From Deltaproteobacteria bacterium (GTDB lineage: Bacteria; Myxococcota; UBA727; VGSZ01), in contig JACOUT010000002.1 in assembly GCA_016177705.1 (NCBI GenBank), positions 213,604-277,603 of the forward strand: a DNA stretch of 64,000 nt, in the 5' to 3' direction. This document shows positions 2,536 to 39,048 of the stretch, one piece after another (positions within the stretch are counted from its first letter, which is position 1; each line of letters starts with the position of its first letter). The notes under the pieces were generated by a model. The model was not told where the DNA came from. It saw nothing but the letters and a program-made list of their open reading frames with translations, and did not search any database. The position numbers were made by a program, and so were the translations under genes.

Positions 2536-2705
2536 GGGTCCGCGCACCAGCGTCGCGGGCCCGAGCACCTCGCGCGCGGGCGCGGGCGCGGCGGAAAACG
2601 GTCGGCTGAGCGGCGCGGCGTGGGACACGAGAACCTCCCGGTCCTCGGACCATGCGCGCCCCGCGTCATGGCGTCGTCACGATGACGCGCCGCGTAGCGA
2701 CCTGA

Positions 2706-3605
2706 TCAGTTGCGGCACTCGCTGTCGCGGCAGGTCGGCTCCGTGGCGGGGCAGTCCTCGTCGACGCGGCACTGCTCGCACTTGGCGTCGACGCACACGG
2801 GGCGGTCGGCGTCCTGCACGCAGTCCGTGTCGGCGCGGCACTCCTCGCAGCGCTGGTCGACGCACACCGGCTTGTCGGCATCGGTGGTGCAGCTCGCGTC
2901 CTGCACGCACTCGACGCACGCGCCGCTGGCGACGTCGCAAGCGGGGCGATCGCCGCCACAACCGGCGTCGCTGGTGCAGGGCGCGAAGCACTCGAGGTCG
3001 GCGCCGCACAGGCCGTCGGACGGGCAGTCGGTGTTCTGCACGCACTCGCGGCACTCGCCTGTGACGCAGAAGGGCGCTGCCACGCCGCAGTCGTCGTTGC
3101 TCAAGCAGCGCTCGCAGCGGCCGGTCGGGCTGCACAGCGGGCCGTCGGCGCCGACGCAATCGTCCGCGAGCACGCACTCGACGCAGGCGGCGTACACCGG
3201 GTGACACACGCCACCGCCGCAGCTCGTGTCGTCCACGCAGGCCTCGACACACTCACCGCGCGGCGAGCAGCTAGGCGCCGCAGCGCCGCAGTCGTCGGCG
3301 GTGCGACACGCCGCGCAGCGGGCCTCGGAGGTACAGAACGGCTCGCCGGCCGGGCAGTCGGCGTCGCTGGCGCACTGCCCGCACATGCCGTTGGCGGCGC
3401 AGATCTCACCGCCGCAGCCCTGGTCCGCCTGGCACTCCACGCAGAAGCCCGCCGAACACAGCGGCGTCATGCCACCGCAGTCCTCGACCGCCGCGCAGGT
3501 GGCGCCGAGGCCGATGGTGCCGGCAGGGGTCGGATCGCCGCTGTCGGCAGGATCGGTGGGGCAACCTAGCACGAGCACGACGGCGAGCAGTCCAAGCCAA
3601 CGCAT
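2706..3605 (-). CDS. Cys-rich repeat lipoprotein (about 12 repeats of C-x-E-C-x2-D-x-D-C…P-x-C)
   Basis: Signal peptide plus lipobox (MRWLGLLAVVLVLGC). Regular roughly 24-aa repeats with conserved Cys spacing (CVECQADQGC…, CRECVQNTDC…, CEECRADTDC…, CEQCRVDEDC…). Confidence 0.6.
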   Translation of the reverse strand: MRWLGLLAVVLVLGCPTDPADSGDPTPAGTIGLGATCAAVEDCGGMTPLCSAGFCVECQADQGCGGEICAANGMCGQCASDADCPAGEPFCTSEARCAACRTADDCGAAAPSCSPRGECVEACVDDTSCGGGVCHPVYAACVECVLADDCVGADGPLCSPTGRCERCLSNDDCGVAAPFCVTGECRECVQNTDCPSDGLCGADLECFAPCTSDAGCGGDRPACDVASGACVECVQDASCTTDADKPVCVDQRCEECRADTDCVQDADRPVCVDAKCEQCRVDEDCPATEPTCRDSECRN

Positions 3606-3648
3606 GGGGACCTCCCACTGCTGCTACGTGCGCGGCCGAGGCGCGCGA

Positions 3649-4977
3649 TCACGCCGAGGTAGGGGCGTGTCGCAGGCGCCGCAGTACGACTCGCGCGCAG
3701 ATGGCGAGCACGAGCGCCATGCTCCACCAAAGCATGGCGCGCGCAGTATTCGGAGCGGTCGACGCGCACGCGCAGCCGACGTCGGTCGGCGACCCGCGCG
3801 CACTGTCCACCTCGCCGTCATCGTCGCTCGTGTCCGGCCCGACGCCTGCGTCCGGCTCGGGCTCGCGCGGACTGCCGGCGTCGGCGTCCACGGGCGGCAC
3901 GCCGCCGTCGACGTCGTCCTGCGGCGGCGGCGACATCGGCGAGTGGCAGCCGGTGTCGTCCCAGGTGCGGCCGAGCGCCACCGCGTGCTCGAGGTCCTGG
4001 CGCAGCGGTGCCGAGCAGCCGATGCAGAAGTCGCGGCCGCTGCCGTCGTCATTGCTGGTCCAGCGGTAGGGCGTTACCGCGCGGATCACCTGGTGCGGGT
4101 TCGCCTGGTTCCAGGAGAACACCTCCTCGTACAGCGCGACGAAGTAGCCGACGTCCTCGTCTCTGTAGGGGTCGCAAGGAGGGTCGCAGGCGCTGCCGGC
4201 CTCGGTGATGTAGAGCGGCAGGTCGAACAGCCCTCGCGCGGCGAGCAGCTCCGTGGTGTCGCGGTAGCCGCGGAAGTGCAGGCGCCACTTGCCCTCGCGG
4301 CCGGGGAACCACTCGTCGGAGGTGACGGCGGCGACGCTCATCTCGCGCGTGTAGGCGTGGATGGCCACGCCGTCGACGTCGCCACCTTGCGCGCGCACGC
4401 GGTCGATGGCGGCGGCCAGGCCGTCGTCCCAATCGCCCCAGTGATCGGTCCACGCCCACGGCGACATTGGCGCGAACAGGATCTCGTGCTCGCCGGCGTT
4501 CGGCAGCGCAGCGACCTGCTCTTGCACGGCCAGGTAGACGTCGGCGTACTCGGCCGGCGTGTAGGGGTAGCCCCAGCCGATGTTCGGCTCGTTGCCGACG
4601 ATCCACACCTTGACGCCGACGGCGTCGCGCACACAGCGCGCGAACTTGGCGGCGTAGCCGGCGACCGCCTCGGGCGTCGTCGGCAGCGGCGGTCCGCCGC
4701 CCCAGTCGAGCCGCAGGATGACGCCGTAGCCCTGGTCCGCGAGGCGCGAGTGCTCGATGGCGCAGTCGCCGCTGTCGCCGATGTACTCGAGCAGCGTGAC
4801 CCAGCCGCGAGCGCAGCCGCCCTCGGAGGGGAACAGCGACAGCTCGGGTTCATCGTGCATGCCGTAGAGGTACGGGCTCATGCCGGTCGGCACCGCCAAC
4901 GACGGCGCTGCGACGAGCGCGGCCACGAGCGCCGGGCCGAGCAGGTGCGGCGCTCGTGCTCGATCAATGAAAAACAT
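3649..4977 (-). CDS. Secreted glycoside hydrolase (GH-A clan, GH5-like) with a MYXO-CTERM sorting tail
   Basis: Signal peptide. WIVGNEPN (acid/base NEP motif) and LYITEAG (nucleophile TE motif). C-terminal GCACAS… followed by a hydrophobic helix and RRLRH, as in MYXO-CTERM. Confidence 0.6.
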
Positions 4978-5083
4978 TCGTTTTTTCTCGCGGGATGCGC
5001 GGCCGGGGTCAATCCCCCCTCTGGCGCCGCGCGCGCGCGTTCCCTACAACACCGAGGTCACCCGACGCGGAGAGCCAAGCGCC

Positions 5084-5314
5084 ATGCCCATCTACGAGTA
5101 CGTCTGCAAGAAGTGCCAACACGGCTTCGAGGCGCTGGTCGACTCGAGCGGCAAGGCCGCCTGCCCCAAGTGCGCGAGCGAGGAGCTCGACAAGCAGCTC
5201 TCGGTCTTCGCCGCCGGCAAGGCGAGCGCGGGCGCTGAGGCGTGCTCGCCGATGGGCGGCTGCGGCGGCTGCATGGACCCGCGCGGGCCGGGCGCCTGCC
5301 GTCTGGCCAACTGA
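5084..5314 (+). CDS. FmdB-family zinc-ribbon putative regulatory protein
   Basis: [19 protein letters not shown]…CPKC: two CxxC pairs on the FmdB/zinc-ribbon pattern. Start at the internal ATG at 5084; the longer upstream ORF extension is discussed in findings. Confidence 0.6.
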
Positions 5315-5721
5315 TGGGCGCCGACGGGCCCGTCGCACGCCACGTGCTGACCATCCTGGCGGTACCGGAGCTGGCGCCCGCGGCTGCGTTCTATCGCGCC
5401 GCGTTCGGCTTCGACGTCGAGGTCGAGACGCCGGTCTACTGCGAGCTGCGCATGCCGGGCGGGCAGCGGCTCGGTCTCTACCAGCGCGACGGCTTCGGGC
5501 GAAACACCGGCGCCGTGCCGGCGGCCATTCCGCGGGGCGAGCTGGCGCCCTGCGAGCTGTACTTCCATACCGACGACGTCGACGCGGCCGCCGCGCGCCT
5601 GACGGGCGCGGGCGCGCGTCTGCTGTCGCCGCGCGCGGTCCGTCCATGGGGCGACGAGGCCGCGTACTTCGCGGACCCGAACGGCAACGTGCTGGTGGTG
5701 GCGCGGCCGATCGCGCGCTGA
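5314..5721 (+). CDS. VOC-family protein (glyoxalase / bleomycin-resistance fold)
   Basis: Pattern typical of glyoxalase-like proteins (FGF…E.Y…DPNGN.L…). Its start overlaps the FmdB stop (TGATG). Confidence 0.55.
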   Translation: MGADGPVARHVLTILAVPELAPAAAFYRAAFGFDVEVETPVYCELRMPGGQRLGLYQRDGFGRNTGAVPAAIPRGELAPCELYFHTDDVDAAAARLTGAGARLLSPRAVRPWGDEAAYFADPNGNVLVVARPIAR

Positions 5722-5727
5722 CGGCGA

Positions 5728-6513
5728 TCAGTAGGCCAAGGGCGGCGCTGGCGCGGGCCGCTCTGCCGCCACAGGTGGCGCGATCTCTTGTTGCGGCGCG
5801 GGCGGCGCGGGCGGCGCGGGCACGGGCACGGGCACGGGCACGGGGGGCGATGCCGGCGCGTCGGCAGGGACATCGAGGAACGCGGCCCCCGCCCCGCCGC
5901 CAGCACCACCGCACGCCGCGCCTGCGCAGAAGCCGCCGAACATCACCGACAGCGCCGCCGACAGCCCGACCATCGACAGGATGCACCCCTCCGGCGACGG
6001 CTCACCGATGGCTGCGCCGAGCGCCTTGGTCGCCTCCCACGTGAGCCACGCGCCGGGTACCGCGGCCGCGGCCCCCGCGACGGTCGCGCCGCCCGTGGCG
6101 CCGAGGCCGCCCGCGACCGACAGCGGCTCACCGAGCACCACCGGCGAGAGCAGCGCGCCGAGGCCCGCGCCGGCGATGGTCAGCACCACCGGTGTGCCGA
6201 TGGCGACCGTCAGGCCCTCGGCGATGGGCGGCTCGCGCCGCGCCAAGGGGTAGACGCCGCCCGCGAGCGCGGCGCCGACCGAGAAGCCCGCCGCCGCGCC
6301 GAGCGCGCCGCCGACCGCGACCGCGCCGACGTGCAGCGCGGTGCGCGTGACGTCGTCGTCCTCGTCGGCCCCGTCGCTCTCGCCGCGGTCGACGGGGGTT
6401 GGCGGGGGAGGCGCGCCGCCCTCGTCGGCGCGGCACGGCAGCGCGCCGACGAGCAGGAGCGGCACGAGCGCAGTCGCGAGGGCCGTGGTGGTGGGACGGG
6501 GCAGGCTGCGCAT
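5728..6513 (-). CDS. Gly/Ala-rich secreted or membrane protein with a (VP)n/(AP)n C-terminal tail
   Basis: Signal-like N-terminus (MRSLPRPTTTALATALVPLLLVGALPC). Long GxxxG/Ala-rich hydrophobic stretches. C-terminal PVPVPVPVPAPPAPPAP. Codon bias favours the minus strand here. Confidence 0.45.
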   Translation of the reverse strand: MRSLPRPTTTALATALVPLLLVGALPCRADEGGAPPPPTPVDRGESDGADEDDDVTRTALHVGAVAVGGALGAAAGFSVGAALAGGVYPLARREPPIAEGLTVAIGTPVVLTIAGAGLGALLSPVVLGEPLSVAGGLGATGGATVAGAAAAVPGAWLTWEATKALGAAIGEPSPEGCILSMVGLSAALSVMFGGFCAGAACGGAGGGAGAAFLDVPADAPASPPVPVPVPVPAPPAPPAPQQEIAPPVAAERPAPAPPLAY

Positions 6514-6648
6514 CGTTCGCTCCGGTTCGATGCAAAACGTTCGTTTTTTTCGTGTCATGTCAATCGCCTCGCGCGCAAAGGCGCCGTCGGTGTGGCCGGG
6601 CTCACAGCGCCCTTGCCTGCGGTGGCGGGGCGCGCGCAATGTCGGCCC

Positions 6649-7908
6649 ATGGACCAGGCGCTGCTGGCGCGCTTCGCGCTCGATCCGGCCGTCACCTTCT
6701 TGAACCACGGCTCCTTCGGCGCCTGCCCGCGCGACGTGCTGGCAGTGCAGAGCGAGCTGCGCGAGCGCATGGAGCGCCAGCCGGTGCGCTTCTTCGCGCG
6801 CGAGCTGCCGGTACTTCTCGACGACGCGCGCGCGCCGCTCGCGCGCTTCCTGCACACCGCGCCCGAGCGCCTCGCCTTCGTGCCCAATGCGACCGCCGCC
6901 GTGAACGCGGTGCTGCGCTGGCTGCCGCTGTCGCCGGGGGACGAGCTGCTCACCACCGACCACATCTACAACGCGTGCAACAACGTACTCGAGGAGGCGG
7001 CGCGACACGCCGGCGCGCGCGTGGTGACGGCGCACGTGCCCTTCCCGCTCGCCAGCGACGACGACGTGGTAGCGCCGGTTTTGGCCGCGGTCACGCCGCG
7101 CACGCGCCTGGCCTTGCTCGATCACGTCACCAGCCCGACCGGCCTGGTGTTCCCGGTGGCGCGACTGGTGCGCGAGCTGCGCGCGCGCGGCGTCGAGTGC
7201 CTGGTCGACGCCGCGCATGCGCCCGGCCAGGTGCCGCTCGACGTCGACGCCATCGGCGCCGCCTGGCTCACCGGCAACTGCCACAAGTGGCTGTTCGCGC
7301 CCAAGGGCGCCGCGTTCCTAGCGGTGCGCGCCGACAAGCTCGAGGGCACGCGGCCCGCCGTGCTGTCGCACGGCGCCAACGCGCCGCCGGGCGCGCGCTC
7401 GCGCTTTCAGCTCGAGTTCGACTGGGTCGGCACCGTCGACCCGACGCCGTGGCTGGCGGTGCCGGCGGGGCTCTCCTTCGGCGAGCGGCTGTTCGAGGGC
7501 GGCTGGCCGGCGCTGATGGCGAGGAACCACGCGTTGGCGGTGGAGGCACGCGCGCTCTTGTGCACGGCGCTCGGCGTGCCCGAGCCTGCACCTGCCGCGA
7601 TGATCGGCGCGCTCGCGTCGGTGCCGCTGCCTGATGGCGACGGCACCACCGAGGGACCGCTCTACGGCGATCCGCTGCAGCGCGCGCTCGCCGAGCAGCA
7701 CGCCATCGAGGTGCCCATCGTGCCCTGGCCCCAGCCGCCGAGGCCGCGAGCTTCGCTCGCTCGCCATGGGCGGCCGTGCAGCGCAGCGCGGCCGCGGCGC
7801 TTGGTGCGCATCTCGGCGCAGGCCTACAACACGATCGAGCAGTACCGCAGGCTCGCCGACGCGCTCATCGCGTTGGTCGGTCGGGCTCGTGAGGCGCCGA
7901 CACGCTGA
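6649..7908 (+). CDS. Class V aminotransferase (isopenicillin-N epimerase / cysteine desulfurase-like, PLP-dependent)
   Basis: FLNHGSFGACP… N-terminus and typical fold-type I residues (…LVDAAHAPGQVPLDV…GNCHKWL…RISAQAYN…). Start at the ATG at 6649. Confidence 0.7.
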   Translation: MDQALLARFALDPAVTFLNHGSFGACPRDVLAVQSELRERMERQPVRFFARELPVLLDDARAPLARFLHTAPERLAFVPNATAAVNAVLRWLPLSPGDELLTTDHIYNACNNVLEEAARHAGARVVTAHVPFPLASDDDVVAPVLAAVTPRTRLALLDHVTSPTGLVFPVARLVRELRARGVECLVDAAHAPGQVPLDVDAIGAAWLTGNCHKWLFAPKGAAFLAVRADKLEGTRPAVLSHGANAPPGARSRFQLEFDWVGTVDPTPWLAVPAGLSFGERLFEGGWPALMARNHALAVEARALLCTALGVPEPAPAAMIGALASVPLPDGDGTTEGPLYGDPLQRALAEQHAIEVPIVPWPQPPRPRASLARHGRPCSAARPRRLVRISAQAYNTIEQYRRLADALIALVGRAREAPTR

Positions 7909-8035
7909 CGTCGCTCTCTTCGTCCGCACCTCCCGGCACGTCGTCCGCGAGCATCGGGACGTACCGCACGGTTGTGCTGCTGATCTATCTATCGCACGAT
8001 TTGTTGCCGTGGTATTCGCGATTCACGGAGGGACA

Positions 8036-8665
8036 ATGAAACGGATATCGCGTCTACTGATTCTCTTTGGGGCAGCCGGGCTCGCTGCTGGCGCTTCGTT
8101 ACCCCCCCCCCCCGTCGACACGCTGACGCCTGTCGACGGGCTTGGTGAGCCGCCTGGCAACGTCTGCGGCGACGAAGCCGCGCCATCACGAATTGCGGCA
8201 ATCGCCCCACTCGACGAACGCACCTACGACGCCGACGACGAGCCCGTGATGATGGTGGCGGTCGACCCGACCCTCCACTTCTCTGAGCTCGAGGTCCTCG
8301 CGACGCTGATTGACCCGCTCGGCTTCGTCCACGGGACCTTCCAGGTCCCGATCACTTCGCCGTCCGCCGACGCAGGCCTGGTCGAGGTCAAGCTGCCCAT
8401 CTGGCAGCTCTACCGCGGCAAGCCCGCGCTCCTGCACCTCCGCTTGCACGCCGTTGATAATGGCCACGTCGTCGCCAGCAACCACGTGGACGCAATCGCC
8501 CTGCTTCCCGTGGATGGGCTCGTTGCGGTCCTGGACTCCGATAACGCCCTACCGGTTTGGCCCACCGAGCGGACAGGGTCGCCGGCGGGTATCGCGGTTG
8601 TGGAGGACGGCGTAGCGCCGGCCCCGGTCTACGCGACCGAGGACGACGAGGAGGTGACGCCATGA
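8036..8665 (+). CDS. Secreted hypothetical protein, first gene of the accessory three-gene operon
   Basis: Signal peptide MKRISRLLILFGAAGLAAGA. AT-richer upstream region. Its stop overlaps the next start (ATGA). Confidence 0.55.
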   Translation: MKRISRLLILFGAAGLAAGASLPPPPVDTLTPVDGLGEPPGNVCGDEAAPSRIAAIAPLDERTYDADDEPVMMVAVDPTLHFSELEVLATLIDPLGFVHGTFQVPITSPSADAGLVEVKLPIWQLYRGKPALLHLRLHAVDNGHVVASNHVDAIALLPVDGLVAVLDSDNALPVWPTERTGSPAGIAVVEDGVAPAPVYATEDDEEVTP

Positions 8666-9873
8666 GCCTCATCGGCCTCACCGTGCGCGCGCTCTCGACC
8701 AGCACCCCTGCCCTGACGAGCAACGTGCGGCTCTGCTTCAAGGCGGCCGTCGTGTACGATGACGCTGCCCGCAATGACCTCGACGACGGCACCATCGAGG
8801 ACAACTGGGCCAGCGGGTCGTCGCAGACGCTGTTCGGCAGTCGCATCATCGCGACCAGCGGTGGGGTTGCCGTCCCTTTCGATACCCATCTCGGCGACGG
8901 GCTCGGCACCGGTGATCCGGGCTCGGGCTGTACGGCGAGCGTGCCGGTGACCCACTCGGGGCAGTTCTTCTCGGTCAGCTACACCGTCTACAGCAAGGGC
9001 ATCATCCAAGGGAACGAGCTCTACGTCCAGAACGCGGACTCGGGCAACTCCTATGCGAGCTTCCCCGGCACGCTCTACTACAGCTGCGCCGGCGGCGGGT
9101 GCAACCTCGCCACCACCGTCACCATCGCGCCCTCGGGGGCGATGCCGATCGCGATGTGGCAGGTGTACGCGGCCGATGCGTACTCGCTCTTCCGACATGC
9201 CGGCGGCCTAACCAGCAGCATCTTCACGGTGCGCCTGTCCAACGATCCGAACTACGACAGCGAATACAACCGGGGCACTGGCATCATCAGCATCCGACAG
9301 GTGGACGCAAAGGAGCGCTTCACCGATTCCCACGAGTTGGGCCATCGCATCGCCCACTTGAGGGGTTTGCCAACCGGGGACTGCGCCCTTGACGACGCCC
9401 AGTGTCCTTCCATCTCCGGGTCCCACTCCATGGGGTCAGAGGAGCACCAGTCTTGCTCGTTCAGTGAAGGCTTCGCGCATTTCTACGCCGCTGACGTCTG
9501 GAACTCTCACTACCAACAAGACTGCGTCTTCCAGTACTACAAGTACACGTCGCTTCCTGCCGTCGACTGCGAGGCGTCGCCTAACGACCTCTCGGACCCG
9601 GTGTCCTTCCCGCTCGCGATGCTTGAGAACACGTGCGGCAGCGGCATCAACGACCACGGGGTCGAGGTCGACTGGCTCAGGACCTTCTGGGATGTCCACA
9701 CCAACGGCAGCTCGCCTCCGACCTTCAACGACATGATGAACTGGATGCAGAGTGCGTTCTTCATCAACCTCACGCCACCGTTTGACGAGCTCGATGGCGA
9801 GGCCAACGCCGTTGGCGGCACGCTCAACCAGAACTGGGACGCAGCGGCGGACGGCAATGGCATCAATCACTAA
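8662..9873 (+). CDS. HExxH zincin-like putative metallopeptidase (no signal peptide)
   Basis: TDSHELGHRIAH zinc-binding motif with a downstream Glu-containing SEGFAHFY. Rich in Cys, Trp, Asn and Tyr. Lower GC than neighbouring genes. Translationally coupled to the genes on both sides. Confidence 0.5.
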   Translation: MSLIGLTVRALSTSTPALTSNVRLCFKAAVVYDDAARNDLDDGTIEDNWASGSSQTLFGSRIIATSGGVAVPFDTHLGDGLGTGDPGSGCTASVPVTHSGQFFSVSYTVYSKGIIQGNELYVQNADSGNSYASFPGTLYYSCAGGGCNLATTVTIAPSGAMPIAMWQVYAADAYSLFRHAGGLTSSIFTVRLSNDPNYDSEYNRGTGIISIRQVDAKERFTDSHELGHRIAHLRGLPTGDCALDDAQCPSISGSHSMGSEEHQSCSFSEGFAHFYAADVWNSHYQQDCVFQYYKYTSLPAVDCEASPNDLSDPVSFPLAMLENTCGSGINDHGVEVDWLRTFWDVHTNGSSPPTFNDMMNWMQSAFFINLTPPFDELDGEANAVGGTLNQNWDAAADGNGINH

Positions 9874-10531
9874 CCCCTGCGCCGTCACCACCGTCGCTGC
9901 TCTGGCACTGGTCTCCGCCTGCCCGTCGCCGCCTCCCTGCCCGGAGGTGGAGGGCGGGGAGGTCTCGGTGCGGGCCGGCTTCTCCACCGAGGACGGCGAA
10001 GTGACGCTCGCCTACGACGAGCCGACGCATCTCCGCGCTATCGCGGTTGCCACGGGGCAGCTCGTCGCCTACCTCGACGTCACGGCTCCGCCGGGCGTCG
10101 AGCTGGCCATCGCGCCGAATGAAGGCGCCACCTACCTGAGCGCCGCGAACGACGAAGAACGTGCCTATGCCCGGCTGACGGACTCACGCGGCACCCTCTT
10201 CGAGGGTGGCACGTTCTTCAGCCTCGCTCCGGTCATGAACCCACCCGCCCTGGTCGAAATCGAGGAGGACGGACAGTCCACCTGCATCGCCGCGAACGGA
10301 AGCCTGACCCGAAGCGTGGTGGCCCACCTGGGCCTCGACGAGCCCATCGACCTGCGCCGCGGGGAATATGCCTACGGGGAGCTCGGGGGGATACCGGCCT
10401 TCGCCATGCTCCCCGACGCTGCCGCCGTCGACCACCGCGGCGACCCGCCGACGGAGGACGGCGCGGATGTCGACACCAGCTACGGAGGCCACTCGGCCGT
10501 GTTCCGGCTGGCGGAGGCGGCCGCTCCCTGA
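9857..10531 (+). CDS. Lipoprotein of unknown function, third gene of the operon
   Basis: MASITNPCAVTTVAALALVSAC: signal peptide plus lipobox. Overlaps the previous gene by 17 nt. Confidence 0.5.
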   Translation: MASITNPCAVTTVAALALVSACPSPPPCPEVEGGEVSVRAGFSTEDGEVTLAYDEPTHLRAIAVATGQLVAYLDVTAPPGVELAIAPNEGATYLSAANDEERAYARLTDSRGTLFEGGTFFSLAPVMNPPALVEIEEDGQSTCIAANGSLTRSVVAHLGLDEPIDLRRGEYAYGELGGIPAFAMLPDAAAVDHRGDPPTEDGADVDTSYGGHSAVFRLAEAAAP

Positions 10532-10814
10532 GCGGGGGTGGCATGCTCGAGCGGCCCCGTGCGACCGCGCTCGAAGGGCCGGGGGGCGAGGGTGGGTCCG
10601 CCGCCGCGCCCATCCGGGCAGGACACCACACCGTTCGTTCACCACCAACCCGCCGATCGTGTCGGCGCGGCCCGCCACCGCGACAAGGGTCCGGACCGGC
10701 AAGGCGCGGAGGCGGACTCGCCCTCGCCCCCCGACCCGTCCCTCGCCTACGCCAGCTCCGTTGACGACGCGTGCGCGCAGCGGGTTGACCGAGATGGTCA
10801 TGAGCTCTATGATC

Positions 10815-11087
10815 ATGACCATGTCCTCGGAATGGAACGTCGCCGGCGCCAAGGCCGAGCTGTCGCGGCTGCTGCGCGAGGCGCAGCGCGAGCCGCAGGT
10901 GATCGAGAACCGTGGCCGGCCGGTCGCGGTGGTGCTCGGCGTGGACGACTACCAGGCGCTCACTGAGCGCGGCGCCGCCGTCGAGCGGTGGCAGCGACTG
11001 CTCGATACCAGCGCCGCCATTCGCGCCGCGGGCGGCGCGACACTGGTGGTCCCGCCGCGTCGTCCGCGCCGCTCGCCGTTCGCATGA
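10815..11087 (+). CDS. vapB: Type II antitoxin (Phd/YefM or VapB type)
   Basis: WNVAGAKAELSRLLREAQREPQVIENRGRPVAVVLGVDDYQAL is a typical antitoxin N-domain. Its stop overlaps the vapC start (ATGA). Confidence 0.6.
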   Translation: MTMSSEWNVAGAKAELSRLLREAQREPQVIENRGRPVAVVLGVDDYQALTERGAAVERWQRLLDTSAAIRAAGGATLVVPPRRPRRSPFA

Positions 11088-11494
11088 CCGCCCTCGTTGA
11101 CACCAACGTGCTGTCGGAGCTGCCTCGGCCGCGCCCGAACGCGAACGTGCTCAGATGGCTCGAGGGTCAGGGCGGACTCATGCTCAGCGTCGTCACGATC
11201 GAGGAGCTCGCGTTCGGCGTAGCGCGCACCCGCCCGGCCATACGGAGGCGCCTGGGTAGGTGGCTCGAGGAGCTCATCGCCGCGGCGGATCACACCTACG
11301 ACGTCACGCCGGCGATCGCGCGCGCGTCAGGCGAGCTGCGCGCGGCGCGGGAAGGCGCGGGGCGTCGGGTGGCACAGGCCGACATGTTGATCGCGGCCAC
11401 GGCGCTGGTCCACGGGCTACCGTTGGCGACGCGCAACACTCGCGACTTCCAGGGGTGCGGGATCGTCCTGGTGAACCCCTTCGGCGACTCGTAG
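11084..11494 (+). CDS. vapC: PIN-domain toxin VapC
   Basis: MTALVDTNVLSE… and later …DMLIAATA…TRNTRDF: the conserved PIN acidic residues. Confidence 0.75.
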   Translation: MTALVDTNVLSELPRPRPNANVLRWLEGQGGLMLSVVTIEELAFGVARTRPAIRRRLGRWLEELIAAADHTYDVTPAIARASGELRAAREGAGRRVAQADMLIAATALVHGLPLATRNTRDFQGCGIVLVNPFGDS

Positions 11495-12244
11495 GTTGGC
11501 TGACGCCGGCACCTCGTCCGACAGCTCAGGGACGTTCCGGCCCGGCAACGCCACGCTCGCGAGCGCTCGGCGCATGCGATCGGCAAGGCGCTCCGAGGGA
11601 TGGCGCACGACGCGCAACAGGCCGAGGATGATGGCGAAGGTGCGCACGAAGCTCGGCTGCTGATAGAGCACCAGCTCGTAGCGCTTGCCGCGCGCCCAGT
11701 AGTGCAGCTCGACCACCGGCCAGAGTTGGTCCTTGCGCGCCTTGACCTCGGGCTGCTGCTCGGCGCGCACCTCGGCGCGGCCGAGCACGCCCTCGAGGGC
11801 CAACCGGCCGCTGTTCGGCACCAGCTCGAGCACCGCGATCTCGTCGGGCACACGCTTGATTCTGTGCACGGTGACCACGGGCTCGACGTTGACGAGCGCG
11901 TGCACGCCGCCTGCGCCCCGCAACGCCGAGCCGGCCCGCCGCTCGAAGCGCCGCGTCATGAAACGCACCAGCGCCACCTCGCCGAACAGATCAAAGCAGC
12001 TCGATGCCGCCGCCAGCAACATGCCGGCGAGCGCACCCGTGACGCTGCCGCGGTCGAGCGAGAACACCAGCACACCGATACCGGCGGAGATGCCGAACAG
12101 CATGCCGATGAAGCCGAACACTCGCGCCAGCTCGATGACGCCGAGGCGCACGCCAGCGTTGTCGTGGAGGGGCTCTTCGAGCGGCGTCGGCACGGCGGGC
12201 TCCGACCGAGATGGTCCCACGCCGCCAGGAGAGCCAGCAAACAC
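11417..12244 (-). CDS. Membrane protein with two N-terminal TM helices and a cytoplasmic domain (possible bPH/YdbS-like DUF304)
   Basis: Two hydrophobic helices (LGVIELARVFGFIGMLFGISAGIGVLVF; GALAGMLLAAASSCFDLF) followed by a roughly 150-aa soluble domain. Strong GC3 bias. Its 3' end overlaps vapC convergently by 78 nt. Confidence 0.45.
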   Translation of the reverse strand: MFAGSPGGVGPSRSEPAVPTPLEEPLHDNAGVRLGVIELARVFGFIGMLFGISAGIGVLVFSLDRGSVTGALAGMLLAAASSCFDLFGEVALVRFMTRRFERRAGSALRGAGGVHALVNVEPVVTVHRIKRVPDEIAVLELVPNSGRLALEGVLGRAEVRAEQQPEVKARKDQLWPVVELHYWARGKRYELVLYQQPSFVRTFAIILGLLRVVRHPSERLADRMRRALASVALPGRNVPELSDEVPASANLRVAEGVHQDDPAPLEVASVARRQR

Positions 12245-38246: not shown

Positions 38247-38382
38247 AGAACCTCCCGTTTCGGTTTGGTGCTCCACGCAAGACGCGGTGGAGCCGATCGC
38301 CGCGTGAGCAATCGATGTGCCACCGCTCACGTCGCGCGCTGACGCCGCTCGACGCGAGGGGTCATGACAAAACACACACGGC

Positions 38383-39048
38383 TTGTGGGCTGATCAGCAC
38401 CGTGCGAATGGTCAATCCGTGGCCACTGCCAAGACCGGGCGCACAGGGAAGCGCAAGCGCAAGAAGCCGACCGCCGACGGCATCCTGCAGGCGGCCGAAC
38501 GGGTGTTCGCCGAGCAAGGCTACGGCGCCACCTCGCTGCGCGAGCTGATGACCGCCGCCAAGGTCTCGACCACCGCCTTCTACGCGCGCTTCCCCTCCAA
38601 GGAGGCGGTGCTCGACGAGCTGATTCGCGGCCTGGTGGAGTCGCTCTCGAAGACCGTGCTCGAGGCCGCCGCGCGCGCGCGCGACGTCGAGAGCGGCCTC
38701 GGTGTCGGCACCGAGGTGCTGGTCGAGTCGCTCGTGCCCCACAAGAACCTGGTCCGCTTGTTCTTCACCGAGGCTACCACCAGCGCCGCGTCGAAGGAGC
38801 TGGTGCGCACGCTGCACGTGCAGCTCGCCGCGCTCTTGGTCGCGCGCCTGGTCAAGCTGCGCGAGAAGGGCGCGGTCAAGACCAACGACCCGAGCGCGCT
38901 CGGCTGGGCGCTCCTCGGCGCCATGGAGCTGCAGCTCATTCGCTGGGCCGTGCTCGGCGATCTCGCCGACAGCGCGCTCAGCGCCTCGCTGCGCGCCACC
39001 GCGCTCGCGGTGCTGCCGGGCGCGGTCGCGCCCAAGTCGGCGGCGTGA
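38383..39048 (+). CDS. TetR-family transcriptional regulator
   Basis: HTH segment ILQAAERVFAEQGYGATSLRELMTAAKVSTTAFYARFPSKEAV. Confidence 0.65.
   Translation: MWADQHRANGQSVATAKTGRTGKRKRKKPTADGILQAAERVFAEQGYGATSLRELMTAAKVSTTAFYARFPSKEAVLDELIRGLVESLSKTVLEAAARARDVESGLGVGTEVLVESLVPHKNLVRLFFTEATTSAASKELVRTLHVQLAALLVARLVKLREKGAVKTNDPSALGWALLGAMELQLIRWAVLGDLADSALSASLRATALAVLPGAVAPKSAA

Follow-up and report, generated by a model that had tools for sequence, protein, structure and literature searches.

A conserved AT-rich dyad at the 5' ends of two accessory genes for putative envelope proteins in a Myxococcota-like genome: a candidate operator

The DNA analysed here, referred to as the window, is a stretch of 64,000 nucleotides from an uncultured deltaproteobacterium (assembly GCA_016177705.1, contig JACOUT010000002.1, positions 213,604 to 277,603 of the forward strand), and it contains two closely similar AT-rich elements, each located between divergently oriented genes. 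Copy A, ATGAAAAACATTCGTTTTTTC (4967-4987, plus strand), and copy B, ATGCAAAACGTTCGTTTTTTT (6530-6550, plus strand), are identical at 18 of 21 positions, as had been stated by an earlier sequence-only reading of the same DNA, and the sole runs of at least six T in the window (4981-4986 and 6544-6550) do lie within them, the GC content of the window being 71.6%. With up to three mismatches allowed, the degenerate 21-mer was found twice in the 64 kb, both matches being the known copies, and not once in 100 dinucleotide-preserving shuffles of the window. Both copies contain the inverted repeat AAAAC-N4-GTTTT, which was absent from the earlier description. On the minus strand, copy A is accompanied by a gene for a secreted hydrolase-like protein of 442 amino acids (HYS27_00990, 3649..4977) and copy B by a gene for a glycine-rich (Gly-rich) secreted or membrane protein (HYS27_01005, 5728..6513). 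On the plus strand the genes reported to lie downstream are indeed there, with fmdB starting at 5084 (97 nt from copy A) and an aminotransferase gene starting at 6649 (99 nt from copy B); Pfam assigns an FmdB-type zinc ribbon to 5084-5314, a glyoxalase fold to the gene at 5314-5721 and a class-V aminotransferase to 6649-7908. The proposed overlap with the 5' end of a minus-strand gene applies to copy A, which covers the ATG (4977..4975) of the open reading frame (ORF) 3649..4977, and not to copy B, which lies 17-37 nt upstream of the Gly-rich ATG (6513..6511), does not overlap the Gly-rich ORF and is located immediately 5' of a GGAG (6523..6520). Read in the sense of the minus-strand genes, the core of copy A (4970..4984, minus strand) is AAAACGAATGTTTTT, i.e., the dyad AAAAC-GAAT-GTTTT, and the core of copy B (6535..6546, minus strand) is AAACGAACGTTT, embedded in the fuller dyad AAAACG-AA-CGTTTT at 6534-6547.

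The question of which genes the element belongs to was addressed by comparison with related loci (given here as L numbers), which were found by protein searches and contig look-ups, whereby the conserved backbone was defined by blastn of the related contigs against the window. The backbone order is DUF4215 protein, acyltransferase, fmdB, glyoxalase, aminotransferase, D12 methyltransferase and YebC, and relative to it the window carries three insertions: 2694-5015, comprising a Cys-rich lipoprotein gene, the hydrolase-like gene and copy A; 5710-6629, comprising the Gly-rich gene and copy B; and 7870-11525, a segment of lower GC content. Copy A is present in all four hydrolase-bearing lineages (the window, L160, L161/162 and L163), and copy B or a variant of it in all five lineages that bear the Gly-rich gene (the window, L166, L167/168, L173 and L172), among which L172 keeps the Gly-rich gene together with the site while the neighbouring genes differ. 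Conversely, the motif occurs nowhere in L164/165 and L169, where fmdB and the aminotransferase gene are present and neither minus-strand gene is. The same is seen site by site: L166 has the lipoprotein gene, the Gly-rich gene and copy B and lacks the hydrolase gene and copy A, the region upstream of its fmdB otherwise aligning with the window as far as a TTGACC, this included, and at site A of L167/168 the minus-strand hydrolase gene and the motif are both missing. Where fmdB or aminotransferase loci are without the minus-strand genes, their own upstream sequence is conserved and the motif is missing from it. Since presence and absence of the motif follow the minus-strand genes across the relatives, the element is assigned, on this comparative basis, to the hydrolase-like and the Gly-rich gene and not to fmdB or the aminotransferase gene. 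More distant aminotransferase homologues from metagenome loci (at most 64% identity) did not reveal the motif either, these being too distant and lacking the Gly-rich gene. Among the options offered by the sequence-only reading, that of a shared transcription-factor site is the one best supported, with the correction that it had been attached to the wrong genes.

Nine instances of the element were aligned in gene sense (alignment A4), and all of them share the core AAACGA-W-Y-GTTT, that is AAAC-N4-GTTT, which is usually lengthened by flanking runs of A and T. In the alignment of the hydrolase loci (A1, mean column identity 67%) the longest invariant run extends over 15 columns and is identical with the core of copy A (AAAACGAATGTTTTT), which is thus unchanged in 4/4 hydrolase orthologue loci (p<=5e-5 by column shuffling) with diverging flanks, and the second-longest invariant run is TTGAC. 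In the alignment of the five Gly-rich lineages (A3) the sequence AAACGA-W-CGTTT is invariant while its flanks diverge, and also invariant are a GTGAGC, which forms part of a CRP/FNR-like site described below, and the Shine-Dalgarno region. L167 and L173 carry a perfect 12-bp palindrome, AAACGATCGTTT, with the A tract shortened to AAA. All nine instances point the same way with respect to their gene, and the 5' A run is longer than the 3' T run. As for the background frequency, the 12-mer core was found in about 0.5 Mb of high-GC loci at the orthologous positions only, plus in two loci for whose selection the pattern itself had been used. A search of the window and its relatives with AAACGNNCGTTT and up to two mismatches let the known sites alone stand out, the two-mismatch matches being at the level of shuffled sequence. 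Across 185,579 species genomes (one genome per species) the exact pattern TGMAAAACRTTCGTTTTTT yielded 78 single matches in unrelated, mostly AT-rich taxa and none in Myxococcota, a number close to the chance level estimated beforehand from composition; the two high-GC matches inspected were L082 and L097. A literature search for the exact 12-mers returned unrelated primer and miRNA matches only. Judged by this pattern of conservation, the motif is under purifying selection and is a real cis-regulatory site.

Upstream of the hydrolase-like gene, the ATG (4975..4977, minus strand) is located within the 3' arm of the dyad and is the first start codon after an in-frame stop. A -35-like pentamer, TTGAC (5008..5012, minus strand), precedes both this ATG and the dyad centre by 30 nt and is invariant in A1, and the spacing amounts to 30, 30, 30 and 29 nt in the four hydrolase lineages, the sequence of the spacer not being conserved. 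As the TTGAC is also present in L166, which is devoid of the hydrolase gene, it is part of the conserved backbone. No conserved Shine-Dalgarno sequence was identified in the hydrolase upstream region covered by A1. The hydrolase orthologues at 78-83% amino-acid identity all start with MFF, followed by a signal peptide, and since the start codon is embedded in the constrained dyad, the conservation of MFF at the head of otherwise unconserved signal peptides seems best explained by constraint at the nucleotide level.

For the Gly-rich gene, the start at ATG 6513 is confirmed by the N-terminus shared among the orthologues (63-69% identity), which reads M-x- and leads into a signal peptide; no domain match was obtained for this protein, and its orthologues were found in this clade only. 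Its Shine-Dalgarno sequence GGAG (6520..6523, minus strand) is located 6 nt before the ATG (6513..6511), and a CC-G-G block is conserved in A3. Further upstream, on the Gly-rich side of the intergenic region, a CRP/FNR-like dyad, TGTGG-CCGGGC-TCACA (6591..6606), was identified 58 bp (centre to centre) from copy B; it is the sole match in the 64-kb window to TGTGA-N6-TCACA with at most one mismatch. A counterpart exists in all five Gly-rich lineages at 58, 60, 58, 58 and 58 bp from the AT-rich dyad, as opposed to the distance between dyad and ATG, which varies (20, 19, 15, 15 and 13 nt). No such site was found upstream of the hydrolase gene. The sequence-only reading had also drawn attention to a TTGACA beside copy B, which does exist (6559..6564, minus strand) and is not conserved, being CTGCCA in L166 and TGGACA in L167 and having no counterpart in L172, so that it is probably incidental. 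Because the spacing of the dyad is fixed with respect to the CRP/FNR-like site and to TTGAC and variable with respect to the Gly-rich ATG, a constraint acting at the level of transcription is favoured; the loci compared show the dyad to be positioned relative to promoter-type DNA landmarks rather than to the ribosome-binding site. In both genes transcription likely starts inside or next to the dyad, the start positions being those that we infer from these spacings. For the Gly-rich gene the dyad centre would fall near -3 if the activator site 58 bp away is taken as a class I site at about -61.5, and for the hydrolase gene a leaderless mRNA is predicted because the -35 hexamer starts 35 nt before the A of the ATG.

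The reading tentatively favoured, with a confidence that stays somewhat short of an even chance, is that the dyad serves as operator of a homodimeric helix-turn-helix regulator and overlaps the core promoter of both genes, protein binding and repression both being what we infer. It is preferred because the core is symmetric, because it forms a perfect palindrome where the flanking A and T runs shrink and because its position is typical for a repressor. The dyad would thereby be part of the 5' control region of two minus-strand envelope genes, encoding a clan GH-A-like hydrolase and a Gly-rich protein, and a putative dimeric regulator would bind across the transcription start and the core promoter of each. 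Once bound, the regulator would block RNA polymerase, and the two genes would be co-regulated. At the hydrolase gene, where the 3' arm opens with the start codon and the dyad centre lies 30 nt past TTGAC, the mRNA would probably be leaderless or nearly so; at the Gly-rich gene the dyad would act from a position just before the Shine-Dalgarno sequence, at a fixed 58 bp downstream of the CRP/FNR-like activator site.

PsrA-type operators, which are located in the psrA, rpoS and fadBA5 promoters of Pseudomonas, offer a likeness to this arrangement, and a PsrA-like regulator is usually autoregulated via its box. The box of the TetR-family regulator PsrA was reported as C/GAAAC-N2-4-GTTTG/C, and at the psrA promoter it extends from -18 to +20, 28 nt before the ATG, where PsrA represses by occluding RNA polymerase (PMC13104628). 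As in the PsrA box, the half-sites AAAC and GTTT are 4 bp apart in 9/9 instances of the element, and GAAAC-GATC-GTTTG in L167 and L173 fits the published PsrA consensus exactly; as at psrA, the dyad covers the predicted core promoter about 20-30 nt before the ATG. In contrast to the PsrA box, the window copies read AAAAC..GTTTT, with A/T instead of G/C as the outer base, and the central CGA-W-YG, on which the PsrA consensus makes no demand, is conserved as well. Furthermore, the genes concerned encode envelope proteins and not fatty-acid or stress functions, in a host from an uncultured Myxococcota-like lineage. A PsrA orthologue was not identified in the window, and the likeness may indicate how the site works, not to which family its regulator belongs.

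Several observations weigh against the operator reading. The sole TetR-family gene of the window (TetR_N, 38383-39048) scores 32 bits against a PsrA cut-off of 300 bits, and the region upstream of it contains no such box; as a candidate regulator it was rejected, being unrelated to PsrA and unconnected with the motif. No more than two sites per genome have come to light, and there is no sign of a wider regulon. The motif was not found in hydrolase orthologues at 54-56% identity, which is why it is regarded, from the loci compared, as lineage-restricted. The identical orientation in 9/9 instances and the longer 5' A run are not required by a purely symmetric operator, the transcription start positions are predicted only, and a consensus scan of 4700-6900 returned no sigma-70 promoter of the type TTGACA, 16-18 nt of spacer and TATAAT, the latter with A at position 2 and T at position 6. 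To name the neighbouring FmdB-like zinc ribbon as the regulator would be a pure guess. A bolder version of the operator reading, which we consider quite improbable, sees in the element a portable module of operator plus start, which would accompany accessory envelope genes into a hypervariable locus downstream of resident promoter elements, so that the same 14 bases would let one regulator gate the initiation of transcription as well as the loading of ribosomes, with the hydrolase AUG being part of the dyad on a leaderless mRNA.

Among the rival explanations, one takes the element as a core-promoter element, in which the A-rich tract, CGA and A-Y-G-TTTT represent the -10, discriminator and initiation region, possibly for an alternative sigma factor, and in which the symmetry is incidental; this is rated unlikely, albeit not negligible. 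It is supported by the predicted start falling inside the motif, given the constant distances to TTGAC (29-30 nt) and the CRP/FNR-like site (58 bp), and by the single orientation in 9/9 instances and the longer A tract on the upstream side. Leaderless-mRNA promoters follow the pattern TTGACA-N17-TANNNT-N6-7-ATG, and the hydrolase gene resembles them in having TTGAC 29-30 nt before the ATG, a spacing which fits transcription beginning with the A of the ATG, and in lacking a conserved Shine-Dalgarno sequence; it departs from them at the -10 position, where the hydrolase loci have AGAAAA, AGAGAA, ACAGAA or CAAAAA and not TAnnnT. In class I CRP/FNR-dependent promoters the activator site is centred near -61.5, and the Gly-rich gene resembles these in that its conserved TGTGA-N6-(T/C)CACA-like site keeps a distance of 58 bp to the dyad centre, whereas this candidate site has one to two mismatches and none exists at the hydrolase gene. 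Against a core-promoter element stands that the motif contains no TAnnnT-type -10, in line with the empty sigma-70 scan, and that L167 and L173 have kept a perfect symmetric 12-mer with only AAA left of the A tract, a combination more in keeping with a dimer site than with an asymmetric -10. The sequences, read by eye, also gave no match to the ECF pattern (GAAC-N16-17-CGT) or to sigma-54 spacing, and in a comparison by eye none of the ECF, sigma-54, LexA, Fur/Zur, LacI-family and parS consensus sequences fits the element. An UP element is an AT-rich tract at -40 to -60, upstream of the -35; this candidate was ruled out, as the motif lies, in gene sense, downstream of the sole conserved -35-like hexamer and is unlinked to the plus-strand genes. 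The related proposal of an UP/-35 element serving those plus-strand genes fails on the absence of the motif wherever the minus-strand gene is missing.

To the same low degree of probability, the element could act at the RNA level in the 5' part of the mRNA, be it as an AU-rich translational enhancer, as a binding site for a protein (S1, Hfq-like or other) or as an unstructured initiation zone for mRNAs of secreted proteins. AU-rich tracts upstream of start codons enhance translation, and in its favour the motif is always found either at the start codon or directly before the Shine-Dalgarno sequence, its sense orientation is fixed with the A tract preceding the U tract, and the hydrolase gene, having no Shine-Dalgarno sequence, needs another initiation aid. 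An A/U-rich tract directly upstream of the Gly-rich Shine-Dalgarno sequence, or around the hydrolase AUG, is what the element has in common with AU-rich enhancers and S1 tracts; these are conserved in composition, whereas here a symmetric 12-mer is invariant and the spacing to the AUG is variable. The distance to the ATG or the Shine-Dalgarno sequence varies within 13-20 nt, in contrast to the constant distance to the DNA landmarks, and AU-richness leaves both the invariant central CGA-W-YG and the perfect palindrome of L167 and L173 unexplained. A hairpin formed by AAAAC and GUUUU would be no more stable than shuffled sequence (z = +0.6; the fold z-scores were +0.6, +0.6, +0.7 and -0.3), four of its six stem pairs are unvarying, and covariation does not exceed that of the shuffle controls. 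Rfam yielded no match in or near either copy, and the sole match at E<=5 within 3000-9000 is sub-threshold and lies inside the hydrolase ORF at 4352-4440. A structured form of the RNA element suggested earlier is thus not borne out. The consensus scan detected no intrinsic terminator, the dyad stem being built of A-T pairs and not GC-rich.

That the element is a functionless relic of common origin, such as a duplicated or mobile 5' end, or a chance resemblance, is considered very improbable: in its favour both genes are accessory insertions in a hypervariable locus; against it, the motif is invariant in nine instances across diverged lineages and in different context, with the adjacent bases randomised, and none is expected by chance. 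No second motif copy was detected at the other insertion ends (3616-3648 and 5710-5727), nor is the motif present at the empty sites in L166, L164 and L169; the end of a mobile element or a recombination site was ruled out on the grounds that no repeat exists at the far ends and none at empty sites.

Less credible still are the readings that place the function on the plus strand, either as a leader peptide M-(K/Q)-N-(I/V)-R-F-F or as an operator or UP element that serves fmdB and the aminotransferase gene. The ORFs MKNIRFF... and MQNVRFF... do exist, both copies beginning an ATG ORF 97 and 99 nt upstream of the plus-strand genes, and the first is in frame with fmdB. This frame relation stems from an upstream in-frame extension (4880-5314), the start of the FmdB family, MPIYEY, being at 5084; a similar extension was made by the gene caller in L166 (777-1175), where it lengthened the FmdB-like gene to 132 amino acids. 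The plus-strand ATG becomes GGT, GTC, GTG or CAG in the orthologues, which disposes of the leader peptide, and the similarity of the two peptides stops after seven codons. In addition, the distance from copy A to fmdB is not kept in L160 and L161, and loci that have fmdB and the aminotransferase gene without the minus-strand genes have no motif; by this presence/absence pattern the plus-strand readings are, as far as the compared loci tell, already refuted. The weakest explanation, that of minus-strand coding, either as a conserved N-terminal peptide (copy B MTRKKRTFCIE..., copy A ..EKKR-MFFID) or as a signal-peptide rare-codon cluster, can draw on both window copies being in frame with the downstream gene and on an in-frame ATG at 6558 for copy B, and is next to impossible given that across the Gly-rich lineages the motif begins 33, 32, 28 and 26 nt before the ATG and hence occupies three frames, that L166 reads HASKKTNVLL at the corresponding position, that a stop and no start codon precedes the hydrolase ATG, and that the orthologous Gly-rich proteins begin at the downstream ATG. 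Across the orthologues compared, the motif is shown to be non-coding in function.

With regard to the protein encoded by the hydrolase-like gene, no sequence match was obtained for the 442 amino acids in Pfam, NCBIfam or PDB. An AlphaFold model (mean pLDDT 76.7, 21 homologues as input) matches (beta/alpha)8 enzymes of clan GH-A, best a Croceicoccus glucosidase and the exopolysaccharide hydrolase PslG, followed by members of GH39, GH128, GH79 and GH5, and the NEP and TE motifs are invariant among the hydrolase-like proteins. The designation of this gene as a glycoside hydrolase (GH) by the sequence-only reading is thus supported at the level of the predicted fold. At its C-terminus (3649-3780), and in the orthologues P0002-P0014, a G-C-x-C is followed by a hydrophobic stretch and an Arg-rich tail, which we take to resemble a MYXO-CTERM sorting signal; the NCBIfam scan reported nothing for it. 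The gene directly downstream of the hydrolase-like gene in the window encodes the Cys-rich lipoprotein (2706-3605, minus strand), which gave weak, sub-threshold matches to Myxo_Cys_RPT and to the outer-membrane-exchange protein TraA, and which in L166 follows directly after the TTGACC backbone element.

The locus as a whole is variable. Relative to the L164/L169 backbone three insertions are found within 9 kb, and the junctions they occupy hold other insertions in relatives, an arrangement which looks like a hot spot for accessory envelope genes. The third insertion, with a GC content of 0.60-0.68 as compared to 0.72 (8000-10400), contains, besides a gene whose secreted product is unannotated (8036-8665), an ORF that includes a Phd/YefM antitoxin domain (10368-11087). 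Elsewhere in the window, an inverted repeat GTGAGC...GCTCAC was observed at 38247-38383, between an HSP20 gene (minus strand, start probably at 38247) and the divergent TetR-family gene, and is a candidate operator for the latter. Outside the window, one of the two high-GC matches of the genome-wide pattern scan, L097 (Altererythrobacter sp. CC-YST694), carries a near-perfect palindrome, TGAAAAACGTTCGTTTTTTCA, at 4893-4916, between the stop codon of fdsB (formate dehydrogenase beta-subunit-like) and a mobA-like gene; it is probably unrelated to the element described here.

Taken by itself, the element is an ordinary orphan operator-like site of a familiar kind in a poorly known lineage. The host belongs to an uncultured Myxococcota-like lineage, for which almost nothing is known on promoters or regulators, and the approach taken illustrates that a site lying between divergent genes can be attributed to the right one of them by asking which close relatives have or lack each gene. 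What the analysis contributes to the biology of this lineage is a motif with nine instances, together with the predicted co-regulation of a Gly-rich envelope protein and an exopolysaccharide-hydrolase-like enzyme.

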